64,000 nt of DNA from the NCBI RefSeq assembly GCF_058153355.1, contig NZ_CM177019.1; one strand, 5' to 3'. Made by a program: the position numbers and the translations under genes. The notes beneath the pieces are model-generated. The model was given only the letters and a program-made list of their open reading frames with translations, was not told the origin of the DNA and made no database searches. Shown here piece by piece: positions 4,383 through 54,181 of this stretch (its first letter is position 1; each line of letters starts with the position of its first letter).

Positions 4383-4510
4383 ATGCCGGATGTGGCCTAC
4401 GGTTCGGCACAGACCTGTAGGCATGATAAGACGCGTCAGCGTCGCATCAGGCATTGTGCGCCAACTGCCGGATGCGGCGTGAACGCCTTATCCGGCCTAC
4501 GAAGGGCAGA
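4383..4510. repeat. BIME: two REP palindromic units in the yjjW/yjjV convergent intergenic region
   Basis: Contains GCCGGATGCGGCGTGAACGCCTTATCCGGCCTAC (4467..4500) and a GATAAGACGCGTCAGCGTCGCATCAGGC unit, both canonical E. coli REP sequences. Confidence 0.85.
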
Positions 4511-39828: not shown

Positions 39829-40409
39829 GCGTTAGTTTCTCCACAGACACAAAACGCCACGACGCCCGGAGCTGCACACTCGCGGGCGTCACTCTTTTCT
39901 GGAGCGCAAAAGATTTTGTAGACCAGTGCTGCATGCTCCTGGAGCTTCGAAATTGACAGATACAACTCATCATTAATTACTGTCTGCTCGTGTGGCTCCA
40001 CTACCCCATCTTCGATTGCCGAACGAATCTGCTTTGAGTAACTCCCGATCTGTTCGATGACTTCCAGCAGACGCTGGTTTATATCGGCGTTCTCTACTTC
40101 CTCAATTTCAGGAAGCGATACAAACACCCCACCAGCAGACTGTGCGACAGCATCCGCAATGTAGTGAGTGCCAGCCGCGCGCTGTAAAATCATTGCCCAT
40201 CCCAGCGGGAAAATCTGATCGCCATCTGCACGAAGGCGGTTGAATAAAGCGTTCTCTGTTACATCCAGCCACTCAGCAGCTTCAGCGTAACCTCCCGGCA
40301 ACGCCGCGATAGTTTTTCTGACAGCTTTCACGTACCACTCAGGCTGTTTTTCTACTTTCCAGTGATGCTTACCCACGGCTATCTCCTTAAAACTGTGGTT
40401 ACTTTCCAT
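39825..40409 (-). CDS. early regulatory protein (YdaT/CII-like position)
   Basis: 194 aa directly downstream of the Cro-like gene; resembles Rac-type YdaT as far as memory allows. Confidence 0.5.
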
Positions 40410-40647
40410 CAGATAAGTCTTTAATCTTTTGAAAAATATCTGGACGTAATTTTTCTTTTGATACGCCAGTGGTCATTTCAATGAATATCGAGAGCTTTGC
40501 AGGGGGACGCTTTTCTCTGTTCAACCAGTTCCAGACATGTTGTTGCTTTACTAAACGACCACTGCTGGCTGTGAGCTTCCGAGCCAATTCTGATTGACCA
40601 CCAGCCAGAGCGATTGCCTCTGATAAGGCTAATTGCTCAGGTGTCAT
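40399..40647 (-). CDS. Cro-like HTH regulator (YdaS-like)
   Basis: 82 aa, divergent from the CI-like repressor across an operator region. Confidence 0.7.
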   Translation of the reverse strand: MTPEQLALSEAIALAGGQSELARKLTASSGRLVKQQHVWNWLNREKRPPAKLSIFIEMTTGVSKEKLRPDIFQKIKDLSDGK

Positions 40648-40650
40648 AGC

Positions 40651-40784
40651 TTTCTCCTATCTGTAAGTAGTAAAGTTGTTGATAACTTCGATTATACAAC
40701 TACAACAACTTTTATTACAACTTTTAGATGTTGGAAAGCTAAAACATAAAGTTGTAACCTCAATAAAAACGAGGGGGATATGTT
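40651..40784. promoter_or_regulatory. OR-like operator/promoter region with repeated AAGTTGT / ACAACTT half-sites
   Basis: Divergent intergenic region between cro-like and cI-like genes with at least four copies of the heptamer in both orientations; the same motif recurs at 41650..41700. Confidence 0.55.
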
Positions 40785-41471
40785 GTGAAAACATTGGCAG
40801 AAAGACTAAAAAGCGAAAGAGAAAAAGCAGGAATGAGTCAGGCGCAACTAGCTGAAAAAATTGGACTTTCACAACAATCCGTAGCGAAAATCGAGAATGG
40901 AGAAACTCAACAGCCTCGGAAAATTAAAGAGATTGCTAAAGTGTTAGGGGTTTCTCAAAAGTGGTTGCAATTGGGCATTGAGGATAACGCGTCTTTCCCA
41001 AACCTTGTTGTAAAGGAGGCTGAAAGTACAACATTAGATCCTGACATTTTTGCAAACATTCCTGTCCTAGATGTCGAATTATCAGCGGGTAATGGATGTT
41101 TGGCTGAAATAGTTGAATCAACTGTAGACTGGTTCCCGCTAAGAAGGATTGATTTAAGGAAAGCTGGTGTATGTGTCTCCAATGCAAAGATCGTAAAAAT
41201 TTGGGGTAATAGTTTACTACCTGTACTTAACAATGGAGATTTTGTTGCTGTTGATGTTTCCCAAACAGTTCCTATTCGTGATGGGGATCTTTATGCTATA
41301 CGTGATGGCGTATTACTTAGAGTTAAAATATTGATCAATTTACCTGACGGTGGTCTGATTCTAAGAAGTTTCAATAAAGATGAGTATCCAGATGAAATAC
41401 TCACCTTCGAAGATAGGCGTTCCAGAATTCACGTTATAGGTAGAGTATTCTGGTCATCGCGCACTTGGTAA
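40785..41471 (+). CDS. CI-like repressor (HTH_XRE N-domain + S24 LexA-type peptidase C-domain)
   Basis: 228 aa; GMSQAQLAEKIGLSQQSVAKIENG HTH; C-terminal domain with Ser (GNSLLP) and Lys (RVKIL) typical of autocleaving repressors; GTG start with SD GAGGGGG. Confidence 0.85.
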   Translation: MKTLAERLKSEREKAGMSQAQLAEKIGLSQQSVAKIENGETQQPRKIKEIAKVLGVSQKWLQLGIEDNASFPNLVVKEAESTTLDPDIFANIPVLDVELSAGNGCLAEIVESTVDWFPLRRIDLRKAGVCVSNAKIVKIWGNSLLPVLNNGDFVAVDVSQTVPIRDGDLYAIRDGVLLRVKILINLPDGGLILRSFNKDEYPDEILTFEDRRSRIHVIGRVFWSSRTW

Positions 41472-41649
41472 TGCATCAAAAACATTCCTTCAGAAATTTA
41501 GTTACCATTATTACCCGCCTTTTCAATCTTCCTCCCGTGATTTGAGAGTTTCCAATCACGGAAGGAAAGTGTCCATTGTGTAATTAAAAGCGCATCGTCC
41601 ATACAACCTCCTTTTTTGATAACCCTAGCCCCCATTTAACATCCGTCAA

Positions 41650-41700
41650 AACCACATAAAGTTGTTGACAACAACCAAAACAACAACTAGATTACAACTT
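41650..41700. promoter_or_regulatory. OL-like operator region (AAGTTGTTGACAACAACC palindrome and further ACAACTT copies)
   Basis: Same heptamer family as the OR region, located downstream of cI and upstream of the plus-strand early-left genes. Confidence 0.5.
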
Positions 41701-41803
41701 AAAGATGTTGCAGTAACGAACAGGCAGGACGCCCACGAAGTAGCCGCCGGTGGCGTATGAATGACCGGATGATTCGTTAAATACTATGTGTAAGAGAGCG
41801 CAA

Positions 41804-42006
41804 ATGAACCGTTATTTCACATGCTCGTTTTGTGGCGCAAACGAGCTGCAGGCAAAAAAATCATCGCCAAAGGCGGAAAAGATGAAGTTGCTATCTGCTC
41901 TGAGTGCGTAGTCTTGTGTGTTGGGGCATTAATCAATATCAGCACAACTATTCAGTTCACACCAAATGAGAATGCGCCTTTAGATGCGCGGAAATCTGGA
42001 GGTTAA
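41804..42006 (+). pseudogene. ClpX-N-type C4 zinc-ribbon protein, reading frame split at an A7 tract (41854..41860)
   Basis: Frame A: MNRYFTCSFCGANELQAKK...; frame B continues ...IIAKGGKDEVAICSECVVLCVGALI. The joined sequence has CxxC-N18-CxxC; a -1 shift at A_AAA_AAA connects the frames. Confidence 0.5.
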
Positions 42007-42098
42007 AGAACAAAATGAAAGTCCAGATTTTAAACAATAACTGTGAAGTCGTTTGGGCGTAAAACATGACCGCGCGTAGACCAAGGGAGGAAAAAGTG

Positions 42099-42272
42099 GG
42101 AATAGTTAGAAATCAAGCAGATATATTGAAAATCAGCTCTGAATTGCTTGGAGTTTTGAAAAGTGAGCTCACCGCACATGGCATCGAGCCCACTGACGAA
42201 AATTTAAGTTGGGTTTTGTCGATTATTCAACAATCACTCAAGCCCAGCCTCAGCAAACTTTTTATCGAGTAG
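42099..42272 (+). CDS. small hypothetical early protein
   Basis: GTG start with strong SD AAGGGAGG; 57 aa; 3' end overlaps a convergent minus-strand ORF. Confidence 0.4.
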   Translation, partial: GIVRNQADILKISSELLGVLKSELTAHGIEPTDENLSWVLSIIQQSLKPSLSKLFIE

Positions 42273-42425
42273 TGCTTCGAACTTATCGTAAAGCTTGCTT
42301 ATGTCGTCTATCGGGTTTTCTGACGTACTGTAATTTTTATCTGATGTCATGGCAGCAGTCTGATATGCAGTGTGAGTCTTAACCGATAGTTGGAATAAAT
42401 AAAGAATTTTTTCTTCTTTGGTCAT
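42234..42425 (-). CDS. small hypothetical acidic protein, convergent and 3'-overlapping
   Basis: 63 aa (MTKEEKILYLFQLSVKTHTAYQ...), SD AAGGAA, low GC. Confidence 0.45.
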   Translation of the reverse strand: MTKEEKILYLFQLSVKTHTAYQTAAMTSDKNYSTSENPIDDISKLYDKFEALLDKKFAEAGLE

Positions 42426-42863
42426 AACTATTTCCTTCTTGGCTATATGAAAACACCAAGATACCACCGAGCCTGAAGTGGTGAAAAGACAGGCACATAA
42501 CAGCTAAGTATTTTCAACCAGAGAGAATCCTTAGCGTTGTGGTGAATGCGGCTCAGCGCACGCGGGTTAAGGTTGAGGTTGACAGTCGACCTTCTGTGGA
42601 TACCCACCCGCCTGGTGTGCAACCTTCGCCAGGCACCGGGAGGCACCCGGCACCACAACTTTATGCTGTGTGTAGTCCTCGCGGTACCAGTTTGTACACT
42701 TGCTTCCGGCTGGTACCGCTCTTTTTACAAAACAGAGAAGGGCATCACCGGACGACGGGCTCATAACCCAATCCATCCGGGCGGCTGCCACCGCAGGTGT
42801 TCTTCTCTGTTTTGTGGAGAAACCAACCGACCTTGCAGGGTCGATATGATGAGGAGCAGCAAA

Positions 42864-51727: not shown

Positions 51728-54090
51728 CCCTGTCGGGTAGCAGCGATTCATTACTGTCTCGCCGCCCCCTAAGAACGGTACGTGCGAGTTTCCCCGCATA
51801 CCGCTCAAGCCTTTATAAGCCTCCACCTTGTGGGAGACCAGCGTCATTACTATGTAGTTGTCGATGGCAGTTGGGATGGAGTAGGACTAAATTGCTCACA
51901 TCATCGCTACCGCCAAGAGATTTCTTGAGCAAATGATGAACATTCCATCCTGTATCGCGATTAATCGGTTGCTCACATAAAGGGCAGCGCGATCCTTGCC
52001 TTTTCCATATAGCGAGAATCCTTTTCTGCCCCTGTTGGGATTTCTTCCATGAGTAGTCCAGCCTTCTTTCGAAGTATGTTTCCCACTCGGGATCATATGG
52101 ATTTGCCGTTCCCTTTATTTTTATATAGCGATTAATATGGATGTCGCTGGCCCGGGACAGAACATATTTCCTACCCTCCGGATCGACTCCATAAAATCGA
52201 CCATGACACATTTTTATTGTCGTGTGGTACTTTCGGAAGATCCATCTCCGGCCTTTGCCGGGATGTCTCCTTCTGCACCACTGCCAGATTTTGCGCCAGA
52301 TTTGGTTGTCGACATAGTTAAATGTCTCTGCCGATGCTACATGTTGGTGATAGTTTGCCCACCCGGTGATGATTGGATTAAGCAGATTTATTAGCACCCA
52401 TGCAGGAACCGTTCGGTTACCTTCAATAGTCTCTCTGATCTTGCTAAGAAATTGTTTAACGTTTTTCTTGGCTGGTCTGATTATGAGTTTTCTACCGAAG
52501 CGTCGGACGTGCTGCCCAAGGAAATCAAATCCGTCAGTAATGTGAGTGATGACCGTTTTCTCTTCGGATAACGTCAGCCCTCTTTCTGCAAGAAATGATT
52601 TCACCAACGGAAGAACATTCTCCTCCAGAAGTTCTTTCGACTTTCCGGAAATGATGAAATCATCAGCATACCGGACGAAGTGAACCTGATGTTTCCTGAA
52701 TGTTTTTGAGCGTTTCGGACCAAAGCGATTTTGCAGCAGTCTTTCCAGTCCATCCAGGGCCATGTTTGCCAGAACTGGAGATATGATTCCTCCCTGGGGT
52801 GTACCCGAGAGAGTTTTGCTGAATATGCTTTTTTCGATGATCCCGGCTTTCAACCAATTACGGAGTATTTGCTTGTCCATAGGAATATTTTCAAGCAGCC
52901 ACTCGTGGCTAATGTGTTCAAAGCATCCTTTAATATCGCCTTCCAGAACCCATTTCGAGGCGTTCCGGGAACTATACATATTACATACCTGTTGAATGGC
53001 GTCAGCCGTACATCGCGCTGGTCTGAAACCATAACTGTTGTGATCTGCATTAGTTTCCGATACAGGCTCCAATCCCAGCAGATGCAGGGCCTGCATTGCC
53101 CTGTCAAGCATGACGGGGATTCCTAATGGTCTTTTCTTGCCATTAGATTTGGGTATAAAAACTCTTTTTAGCGGTAGGGGCTTGTACCCTTTTCGCCTGA
53201 GTTTGAATATCGCTTCCCATTTTGATTCTGGAGTACTCCAGATTTGACCATCAACTCCGGGGGTTTTACGCCCGCTATTTTCCGTAACTCGTTTCACCGC
53301 CAGTGCTCTGGCGCTGAATGAGCGAACCAGCAATCGTTGCAATCTACCGACTGTACGCCATTGCTGGTTACATGCCGCCTTTGCGATTCTTGTCTGTATG
53401 GTTTTAACGTGTTGATGGCATTTCTTCCAGTTAATGGAATGCCAACCTTTTCCGTTGATGACCGCAGTTACATTGTTAGATGTAATTTTCATACATGTCA
53501 TCCAAAGAAACCTTCGCAGATGTTTCGCAATTAAAGACCAGATGGAAGTCAGCACGGTTTCCCGTTAAGGCAAATATTGAACCTCTATCCGCACGATTAC
53601 AGTCCGGCTTTCGCTTTTTCCATCCTCCTTTACCCGCATTCTCATCAGTTTGCCTTACGGTGCCCCTGCCACTAGGGCGAGAATTCGGGCTTACCAAGTT
53701 CCGACCAACATACAAAGAACGGGTTAGGTTCTGTCTATCCGCCGGGGGAGTTATTGTCCATGTATTCCCACTACGAACAGGAATAGCCTTACCCCTTACC
53801 TTTTGGTGCAAGCCTATCAGCATCTTTGGCTCGTTCTCTGTTACGACGTTTAACGACAGTTCACTATGTTAACCATACCGCCCAGCCTAGCGCTCTCGCC
53901 GCATGATGCTTGTAGCGATCAGGTTTTCTCACGATTAACTGAAGCAATATTTGCTAAGCTACATTGTCCCAAGGGCTTCAGACAGAGCCGTTACCAGCTT
54001 TGCCTGCCTCAGTAGGCTACAACTAATGGAATAGTTGGTTTTATATAAATAATTTATCAAAACAATATGTTGGACGACTTCTTGTCGCAC
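51728..54090 (-). mobile_element. group II intron (~2.36 kb), boundaries approximate at the 3' end
   Basis: 5' end GTGCGACAAG (reverse complement of 54081..54090); RT/maturase/HNH ORF; canonical domain V GAGCGGTATGCGGGGAAACTCGCACGTACCGTTC (reverse complement of 51773..51806) 7 nt after the ORF stop. Confidence 0.75.
51813..53492 (-). CDS. group II intron reverse transcriptase/maturase with C-terminal HNH endonuclease domain
   Basis: ORF 51813..53555; RT motifs including YADDFII; maturase (X) region; C-terminal CPLCEQ...HH...NCHRQLH; likely start at MKITSNNVT. Confidence 0.85.
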   Translation of the reverse strand: MKITSNNVTAVINGKGWHSINWKKCHQHVKTIQTRIAKAACNQQWRTVGRLQRLLVRSFSARALAVKRVTENSGRKTPGVDGQIWSTPESKWEAIFKLRRKGYKPLPLKRVFIPKSNGKKRPLGIPVMLDRAMQALHLLGLEPVSETNADHNSYGFRPARCTADAIQQVCNMYSSRNASKWVLEGDIKGCFEHISHEWLLENIPMDKQILRNWLKAGIIEKSIFSKTLSGTPQGGIISPVLANMALDGLERLLQNRFGPKRSKTFRKHQVHFVRYADDFIISGKSKELLEENVLPLVKSFLAERGLTLSEEKTVITHITDGFDFLGQHVRRFGRKLIIRPAKKNVKQFLSKIRETIEGNRTVPAWVLINLLNPIITGWANYHQHVASAETFNYVDNQIWRKIWQWCRRRHPGKGRRWIFRKYHTTIKMCHGRFYGVDPEGRKYVLSRASDIHINRYIKIKGTANPYDPEWETYFERRLDYSWKKSQQGQKRILAIWKRQGSRCPLCEQPINRDTGWNVHHLLKKSLGGSDDVSNLVLLHPNCHRQLHSNDAGLPQGGGL

Positions 54091-54093
54091 TCG

Positions 54094-54181
54094 TAGGCCA
54101 GATAAGACGCGCCCGCGTCGCATCTGGCATCTGCACCCAAATACCGTGTCGGATGCGGCATGAACGCCTTATCCGACCTAT
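54094..54181. repeat. BIME: two REP units abutting the intron 5' end
   Basis: TAGGCCAGATAAGACGCGCCCGCGTCGCATCTGGCA and GTCGGATGCGGCATGAACGCCTTATCCGACCTAT. Confidence 0.7.

Follow-up and report, generated by a model that had tools for sequence, protein, structure and literature searches.

Immunity region and clustered heptamers

The 64-kb window analysed here (64,000 nucleotides of contig NZ_CM177019.1, RefSeq assembly GCF_058153355.1, numbered from its first base) contains what appears from its sequence to be a prophage immunity region, with a cI repressor gene, a divergent cro-like gene, a right operator region (OR) between the two, and a left operator region (OL) with its promoter PL downstream of cI. 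This identity follows from the domains of cI and cro, the prophage context and the predicted promoters PR and PL, and it bears out the initial annotation, which had called the locus an immunity region. The direct observations described below are the clustering, conservation and spacing of short boxes in OR and OL, the homology of the two proteins and a positional match to the annotated phage 434. The two genes are:

40399-40647, minus strand: cro-like gene, 82 amino acids, YdaS-family helix-turn-helix (HTH) protein (Pfam PF15943, E = 3.6e-14)
40785-41471, plus strand: cI repressor gene, 228 amino acids, GTG start, with HTH_3 (1.2e-15) and Peptidase_S24 (1e-13) domains

A 137-bp intergenic gap (40648-40784) separates them. 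Beyond cro, its strand carries a CII/CP76-like gene and then replication genes. In a close Escherichia coli relative (98.7% identity), a complete lambdoid prophage surrounds the region, with terminase, lysis genes and a Q-like antiterminator on one flank and yfdP/Q/R, an exonuclease and further genes on the other.

The heptamer AAGTTGT/ACAACTT occurs 13 times in the window, and 6 of the 13 copies fall within two short AT-rich stretches, OR and OL/PL. Four lie in the cro-cI intergenic region (40673+, 40705-, 40717- and 40749+) and two lie downstream of cI within a 45-bp stretch (41659+ and 41694-), confirming copies reported earlier in both places. The initial annotation had held that its proposal of heptamer operators would fall if the copies were not enriched relative to background composition. 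Across the whole window there is indeed no enrichment (13 copies observed versus 8.65 ± 2.87 expected, with 9 of 100 shuffles reaching 13), whereas the clustering is far above chance: one 100-bp interval holds 4 copies, a number that never exceeded 2 in 200 simulated first-order Markov sequences, and the expectation for OR is about 0.03 copies. The pentamer ACAAC/GTTGT reaches five or more copies per 100-bp bin only at 40621-40800 and 41581-41760, and all remaining 100-bp bins of the 64 kb hold at most two. GC content in the OR and OL stretches is 31-33% versus 50%, an AT-richness that by our own rough estimate would shift the local heptamer expectation little. Downstream of cI, the string AAGTTGTTGACAACAACC at 41659-41676 contains a perfect 15-bp palindrome (41661-41675).

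A conserved 15-bp dyad in OR and OL

A single conserved unit fits every full site in the two regions: ACAAC-N5-GTTGT, equivalent to ACAACTT-n-AAGTTGT, a 15-bp dyad with an A/T-rich centre. Two such sites are found in OR and two in OL, interspersed with lone boxes and predicted promoters. The elements of OR are:

40673-40679, minus strand: B1, lone invariant heptamer AAGTTGT in the cro leader, at about +6 to +13 of PR
40692-40720, minus strand: PR, predicted promoter, -35 TTGTAA (40720-40715), 18-nucleotide spacer, -10 TATAAT (40697-40692)
40694-40700, plus strand: B2, lone conserved box ATACAAC, overlapping the upstream edge of the PR -10
40704-40713, plus strand: B3, lone conserved box AACAACTTTT in the PR spacer, 12 bp upstream of the left half of OR-a
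40717-40731: OR-a, predicted 15-bp operator ACAACTTTTAGATGT, matching ACAAC-N5-GTTGT at 9/10
40732-40761, plus strand: PRM, putative promoter, -35 TTGGAA (40732-40737), spacer 18, -10 TAACCT (40756-40761)
40741-40755: OR-b, predicted 15-bp operator AAAACATAAAGTTGT, matching ACAAC-N5-GTTGT at 9/10

The elements of OL are:

41651-41665: OL-a, predicted 15-bp operator ACCACATAAAGTTGT, 9/10, abutting the PL -35 with a 1-nucleotide overlap
41661-41675: lineage-specific perfect palindrome GTTGTTGACAACAAC, the core of the example given in the initial annotation, its right arm in the PL spacer
41665-41693, plus strand: PL, predicted promoter, -35 TTGACA (41665-41670), 17-nucleotide spacer, -10 TAGATT (41688-41693), 10/12
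41683-41687, plus strand: LB2, lone conserved ACAAC box overlapping the PL -10, 11 bp upstream of the left half of OL-b
41694-41708: OL-b, predicted 15-bp operator ACAACTTAAAGATGT, 9/10, covering the predicted PL start site, 43 bp from OL-a

We compared the region with about 90 related prophages whose CI proteins are 58-100% identical, and built alignments from their unique sequences, 34 for OR and 39 for OL. In both sets the boxes and promoter hexamers are invariant, and the flanks and the PL spacer are free to vary. The invariant blocks of OR are AAGTTGT (B1), atacAac (B2), aAcAACtttt (B3), ACAACtTTTaG.TGTTGGAAAg and AAaACaTaAAGTTGTAa, with no indels from B1 to the last block (OR-b) in relatives that carry the same type of cro. 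The invariant pattern of OL is tcAAAC.ACATAAAGTTGTTGaca, followed by 12 fully variable nucleotides and then by acAacta.ATtACA.CttAAaG.tGTT; the variable stretch is the PL spacer and holds the right arm of the palindrome at 41661-41675. The distance from OR-a to OR-b is 24 bp in each of the variants listed, and that from OL-a to OL-b is 43 bp in 39/39 OL variants.

With at most one mismatch allowed, ACAAC-N5-GTTGT has five matches in the 64 kb versus 2.0 expected, and four of the five are the sites in OR and OL, a combined target of about 210 bp in which, by our own arithmetic, about 0.007 matches would be expected. A scan of all spacings from 0 to 18 in three orientations likewise ranked the convergent N5 arrangement best, with four matches inside OR/OL and one outside, and left N8 as the sole competitor. 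Sequence variation at OL-b points to the same unit. Exactly one mismatch is present in 38 of the 39 unique OL-b variants and it switches between the halves: ACAAC is paired with G(A/G)TGT in 30 variants and ACACC with GTTGT in 8, with the mismatch never in both halves and never in neither. This swapping of a single mismatch from side to side argues for the 15-mer as the selected unit, apparently held at sub-maximal affinity. The initial view of inverted heptamers as operators therefore survives in part, in that a convergent 15-bp dyad is conserved; the divergent palindrome quoted in its support is not, and four of the boxes are lone half-sites.

Two further matches were rejected as operators. 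The fifth dyad match (42655-42669, ACAACTTTATGCTGT, 9/10) lies in a 200-bp context that 2757 of the 5426 E. coli genomes share, e14 (ymfH) among them; since only 71 genomes carry this immunity type and about two chance matches are expected, it is probably fortuitous. The same dyad falls within a match to the Rfam small RNA family STnc100 (42506-42728; 49.8 bits, gathering 47). An ACAAC box inside cI (40871-40885, TCACAACAATCC; dyad 8/10) arises from the Gln-Gln codons of the recognition helix and has no conserved partner, and was set aside as a coding coincidence.

Placement of the predicted operators on predicted promoters

OR-a shares bases with the PR -35 and borders the putative PRM -35, an OR2-like position that matches the placement of OR2 in phage 434, and OR-b lies inside the putative PRM spacer abutting the PRM -10, an OR3-like position 24 bp from OR-a. 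PR scores as a strong leftward promoter in a consensus scan (10/12 positions), both of its hexamers are kept in relatives, and it is predicted to drive cro, the cII-like gene and the replication genes. PRM is inferred to be a weak promoter; in relatives its TTGGAA hexamer is invariant and its -10 keeps TA..(C/A)T. The spacing between B1 and B2 is fixed at N16 in the alignment of relatives, with a hypervariable intervening 14 bp. We found no credible third full dyad in OR, where the best additional 15-mer scores 7/10 and is not conserved, and the OR1-like position holds conserved lone half-sites only. A 15-mer beginning at B2 would place its centre 21 bp from OR-a, exactly the 434 OR1-OR2 distance, and its right half, CAACT, is no half-site.

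A second operator cluster of the same sequence type flanks predicted PL, which scores as a strong rightward promoter, downstream of cI, where the promoter hexamers and their spacing are kept in relatives and the spacer sequence varies. This cluster is retained even when a BRCT-domain gene intervenes: the distance from OR-a to OL-b, 977 bp in the window, is about 1.73 kb in relatives that carry this gene. The initial annotation had described the same word at OR and OL in a lambda-like layout, and this description is upheld by a PL-associated OL about 1 kb away from OR and by boxes that are footprinted in the relatives. Looping between OL and OR through CI oligomers would be geometrically possible.

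The stretch between cI and OL also holds a 45-amino-acid open reading frame (41498-41635, minus strand) that is the N-terminal remnant of a gene for a BRCT-domain protein of about 296 amino acids. The gene is intact between cI and OL, on the strand opposite to cI, in the relatives L002, L003 and L004, which have the more diverged (84%) type of OR described below, and the window therefore carries a deletion derivative of this accessory ('moron') gene.

CI and Cro are candidate readers of the boxes

Among proteins of solved structure, the phage 434 repressor is closest to the CI N-terminal domain, with 45% identity over 66 amino acids (E = 7.7e-16). The CI recognition helix reads SQQSVAKIEN, compared with TQQSIEQLEN in 434, so that Gln-Gln-Ser is retained, and CI also keeps Pro-Arg at the position of 434 Arg43. 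In 434 co-crystals, reportedly those of Anderson in 1987 and Aggarwal in 1988, Gln28 and Gln29 are said to read the outer ACA of ACAA, and Arg43 to sit in the minor groove of the A/T-rich centre. The ACAA(C) half-site with an A/T-rich centre found here agrees with both contacts. The CI C-terminal domain is S24 autopeptidase-like, with SAG|NG, GNSL and RVK motifs read from the translation, and thus has the Ala-Gly site and Ser/Lys dyad expected of a repressor capable of RecA-stimulated autocleavage.

The Cro recognition helix, VKQQHVWNWL, is invariant or near-invariant and takes the form VKQQ(H/Q)(V/I)WNWL across all groups. It is still kept in Proteus and Providencia, where the remainder of Cro is strongly divergent, and the Cro HTH aligns weakly to VKQQS of 434 Cro. 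According to a published 'Cro code' (PMC6649833), a Gln that occupies position 1 of the helix is paired with an adenine located seven base pairs away from the centre of the dyad, and in the sites described here that position would be A1 of ACAAC. In every group, Proteus and Providencia among them, conservation of the boxes goes together with that of the CI helix, SQQS(V/I)xKIE, and of the Cro helix just given, and it is this co-conservation of recognition helices and boxes that suggests both proteins as binders. We rejected the CII-like protein as the box reader: its e14 homologue, YmfL, is 88% identical, yet the e14 operators are of a TGTAC type and the e14 CI and Cro are unrelated. From this comparison, the ACAAC boxes therefore track CI and Cro and not the CII-like protein.

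A probable lambda/434-type switch and alternative arrangements

We assign a probability of about 0.72 to the reading that these elements form the operator set of a lambda/434-type CI-Cro switch with an uncharacterised immunity specificity. Its binding, repression, activation and induction steps are inferred, and would run as follows. Two ACAAC(TT) half-sites would converge around one central base pair to form 15-bp operators, two in OR and two in OL, bound by CI dimers through a 434-like HTH in which the Gln-Gln that opens the recognition helix would read the outer ACA. At OR-a, CI would block the PR -35, and OR-a would repress PR since it overlaps this hexamer; from the same site, about 44 bp upstream of the PRM start and thus in the activating position of 434 or lambda OR2, it may also activate PRM. 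At OR-b, CI or Cro would fill the PRM spacer and -10 edge and switch off cI transcription. At OL, CI bound to OL-b would cover the PL start, with OL-a abutting the PL -35. Cro probably shares the same sites, its recognition helix likewise opening with Gln-Gln, and induction of the prophage would follow from RecA-stimulated self-cleavage by the S24 domain.

Several points weigh against this reading. The sites, and their assignment as operators for CI and Cro, are predictions from sequence. PRM and all transcription starts are likewise predicted only, and the PRM -10 matches the consensus at 3/6 positions with a spacer of 18 nucleotides. OR has only two full dyads, versus three in lambda and 434. 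B1, B2, B3 and LB2 are strongly conserved and have no inverted N5 partner, and a simple model of one dimer per dyad leaves them unexplained. Relatives in Proteus and Providencia have a divergent palindrome, GTTGT-N4/5-ACAAC, at the OR1-like position, an arrangement that a rigid 434-like dimer should not bind. Finally, OR-a and OL-b can also be read in this window as ACAAC-N8-GTTG(G/C).

The lone boxes leave room for half-operator binding stabilised by cooperativity, and it is conceivable, though unlikely, that the switch logic differs from that of lambda and 434, with two single-mismatch dyads per region, equally conserved lone half-sites that would enclose the promoter cores at fixed helical spacing, and repression by a higher-order CI or CI/Cro complex. 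Such a complex would read half-operators in both orientations and would replace the OR1-OR2 dimer pair. A proposal of this kind that we likewise hold to be unlikely, if not slightly more doubtful, is that a higher-order oligomer of CI (or Cro) reads boxes singly through flexibly linked domains, with half-sites at integral helical turns in either orientation and with the lone boxes that flank the promoter cores (B1-N16-B2, and the right half of OL-a-N17-LB2) joining one large repressing complex. Consistent with this proposal, the lone boxes are conserved like the dyads, with strictly fixed spacing and free intervening sequence; box-to-box distances are 9-12 or 21-22 bp; and a three-box module (arrow, arrow, reverse arrow) recurs at OR (B3 plus OR-a) and OL (LB2 plus OL-b). 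The PR -10/+1 lies between B1 and B2 (N16), and the PL -35/spacer between the right half of OL-a and LB2 (N17). However, there is no precedent for such reading within the 434-like N-terminal domain family, the compensatory half-swap at OL-b points to a dimer-sized unit, LB2 and OL-b would overlap as 15-mers, and the spacing in OL is partly forced by the promoter hexamers.

An arrangement of the operators as inverted heptamers that point away from each other (AAGTTGT...ACAACTT), with GTTGTTGACAACAAC at the PL -35 and AAGTTGTTGATAACTT in OR as examples, is improbable. The palindrome at 41661-41675 is perfect over 15 bp, N2 and N5 divergent arrangements score inside OL, and in Proteus and Providencia relatives clean divergent palindromes lie just downstream of the PR -10, for example AAAGTTGTTATTAACAACTTT (L081) and AAGTTGTAAAAAACAACTT (L083). 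The right arm of the palindrome, however, varies: even with an unchanged CI recognition helix, relatives carry TTGACATTGTGC, TTGACACCTTAC, TTGACATGGTGA and others in its place, and the palindrome is therefore a feature of this lineage only. The partner of B1 in OR is also unconserved, and the orientation is inside-out relative to 434-type half-sites. We therefore reject the divergent palindrome as a conserved operator. An 18-bp dyad, ACAAC-N8-GTTG(G), with TGTTGG instead of GATGT as its right half, has very little chance of being the operator and is likewise rejected on conservation. In its favour, it has three matches with at most one mismatch in OR/OL and zero elsewhere in the window, and OR relatives all keep TGTTGGAAAG. 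In OL, however, several sequences occur as its right half (GTTGC, GTTAA, GTTAC, GTTTT, GTTAT), whereas that of the N5 dyad stays G.TGT; neither OR-b nor OL-a can be read as N8; and the PRM -35 accounts for the constancy of TTGGAA in OR.

Comparison with phage 434, lambda and e14

The predicted lambda/434-type operators resemble those of 434 in that the half-sites open with ACAA at their outer ends and the operator centres are A/T-rich. The annotated 434 record shows the same order of OR2, pRM -35, OR3 and pRM -10, and the distances from the OR2 and OR3 centres to the pRM start, 43.5 and 20.5 bp in 434, are about 44 and 20 bp here for an inferred start near 40768. OL lies about 1 kb from OR in both (1183 bp in 434 and 977 bp here), and the 434 Cro recognition helix likewise opens with VKQQ. 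By contrast, 434 operators are annotated as 14-bp sites of the form ACAA-N6-TTGT or near variants, whereas those here take the 15-bp form ACAA-N7-TTGT, whose axis falls on a base pair; the PRM spacer is correspondingly 18 nucleotides, versus 17 in 434, matching the 1-bp-longer operator. The fifth base of the half-site, C, is conserved here, residue 33 is Lys and not Gln, and each region has two full dyads plus lone half-sites where 434 has three dyads. PR is shifted relative to 434, so that OR-a overlaps its -35, whereas the corresponding 434 operator lies in the PR spacer. The CI C-terminal domain cannot be aligned to that of 434 by BLASTP, Cro is of the YdaS family and not the cI-derived 434 type, and an N/nut system is not evident. 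The 14-bp ACAA-N6-TTGT operator that would place this region in the 434 immunity group is absent, and hetero-immunity with 434 is predicted from the 1-bp difference in operator length (15 versus 14 bp). Hetero-immunity is likewise predicted with e14, and homo-immunity with a group of relatives whose CI is 93% identical and which share the helix and the boxes.

Similar to lambda, the region has divergent cI and cro genes, a predicted autocleavable S24 repressor, operators common to OR and OL, an odd operator length that puts the axis on a base pair, a distance of 23-24 bp between neighbouring operators, and space for an accessory gene between cI and OL (the BRCT gene in relatives; rexAB in lambda). 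The operators differ in sequence and length from those of lambda, which are 17 bp, and the third full operator was not detected here. The lambda PRM transcript is leaderless, whereas the cI message here has a Shine-Dalgarno leader.

The immunity region of e14 (ymfK/cohE, ymfT/croE, ymfL) has the same gene order, including the 88% identical CII-like YmfL, the same structured leader sequence after PL and the PL -35 TTGACA. Its CI (31% identity over 39 amino acids) and Cro (34% over 61 amino acids) are nevertheless essentially unrelated to those described here, and its TGTAC-type operators are palindromes; the two regions are thus different immunity modules in the same phage chassis. We found nothing usable in the literature on e14/SfV operators or on 434 contacts.

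A conserved PL leader and other features of the window

The leader shared with e14 is about 64 nucleotides long (41714-41779, plus strand; AACGAACAGGCAGGACGCCCACGAAGTAGCCGCCGGTGGCGTATGAATGACCGGATGATTCGTT) and starts about 14 nucleotides after the predicted PL start. It is common to e14, SfV, SfII, SfIV, ST64B, mEp460 and Pantoea/Yersinia phages irrespective of immunity type, and most of the 1395 E. coli genomes matched by the region probably match through it, only 71 carrying this immunity type. RNAalifold analysis of 19 variants predicts an outer stem and an inner hairpin with 4 covarying pairs, exemplified by the stems CCGGU/ACCGG, CCUGG/CCAGG, CCCCA/UGGGG and CCGAU/AUCGG, and the sequence downstream of the leader diverges at once. 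No Rfam match was found in 40300-42300, no real sequence similarity links the leader to HK022 putL, the HK022 PL-to-cII region returned no RNA family in the Rfam search, and the single-sequence folding energy is unremarkable (z = 0.86). The leader may represent an unclassified cis-acting RNA, for example one involved in antitermination or stability, and its novelty may exceed that of the operators. The first open reading frame of the PL operon (41821-42006, plus strand, 61 amino acids) matches a ClpX-type C4 zinc finger weakly, at a level that falls short of the Pfam cut-off (E = 1.8e-4), and is labelled 'ClpX C4-type zinc finger protein' in relatives.

Elsewhere in the window, Rfam identifies the following elements:

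4420-4497 and 54096-54178: two naRNA4/REP-like elements
51732-54038, minus strand: group II intron domains RF00029 (51732-51808) and RF02012 (53891-54038)
54318-54636, plus strand: three identically scoring tRNA matches in tandem

Distribution and significance of the immunity group

This immunity type is absent from the sequenced phages searched; it was seen solely as a prophage, in IMG/VR prophage contigs and in 71 of the 5426 complete E. coli genomes. INPHARED contains zero phage records with this DNA, and the best tblastn identity to CI in that collection is 44.5%. In E. coli the OR sequence falls into two sub-types, one at least 95% and the other about 84% identical to that of the window, and IMG/VR holds 80 loci with CI proteins 58-100% identical. 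A scan of genome contigs with the 16-mer ACATAAAGTTGTTGAC, for which about 140 chance matches would be expected in 298 Gb, yielded true relatives at 7 of the 120 loci listed, and true relatives are also present in genomes of Citrobacter, Serratia, Rosenbergiella, Proteus and Providencia.

Together, these results define from sequence a likely operator code, ACAACTT-n-AAGTTGT, for an uncharacterised immunity group that spans prophages of Escherichia, Citrobacter, Serratia, Rosenbergiella, Proteus and Providencia. The principle appears unchanged, that of an ordinary lambda/434-type switch with a new specificity. The code would help to predict superinfection immunity and cross-talk between prophages and to annotate such regions, and a natural variant of the 434 repressor that combines the same Gln-Gln helix with a 1-bp-longer operator would offer a convenient system in which to study the evolution of spacing specificity in HTH dimers.

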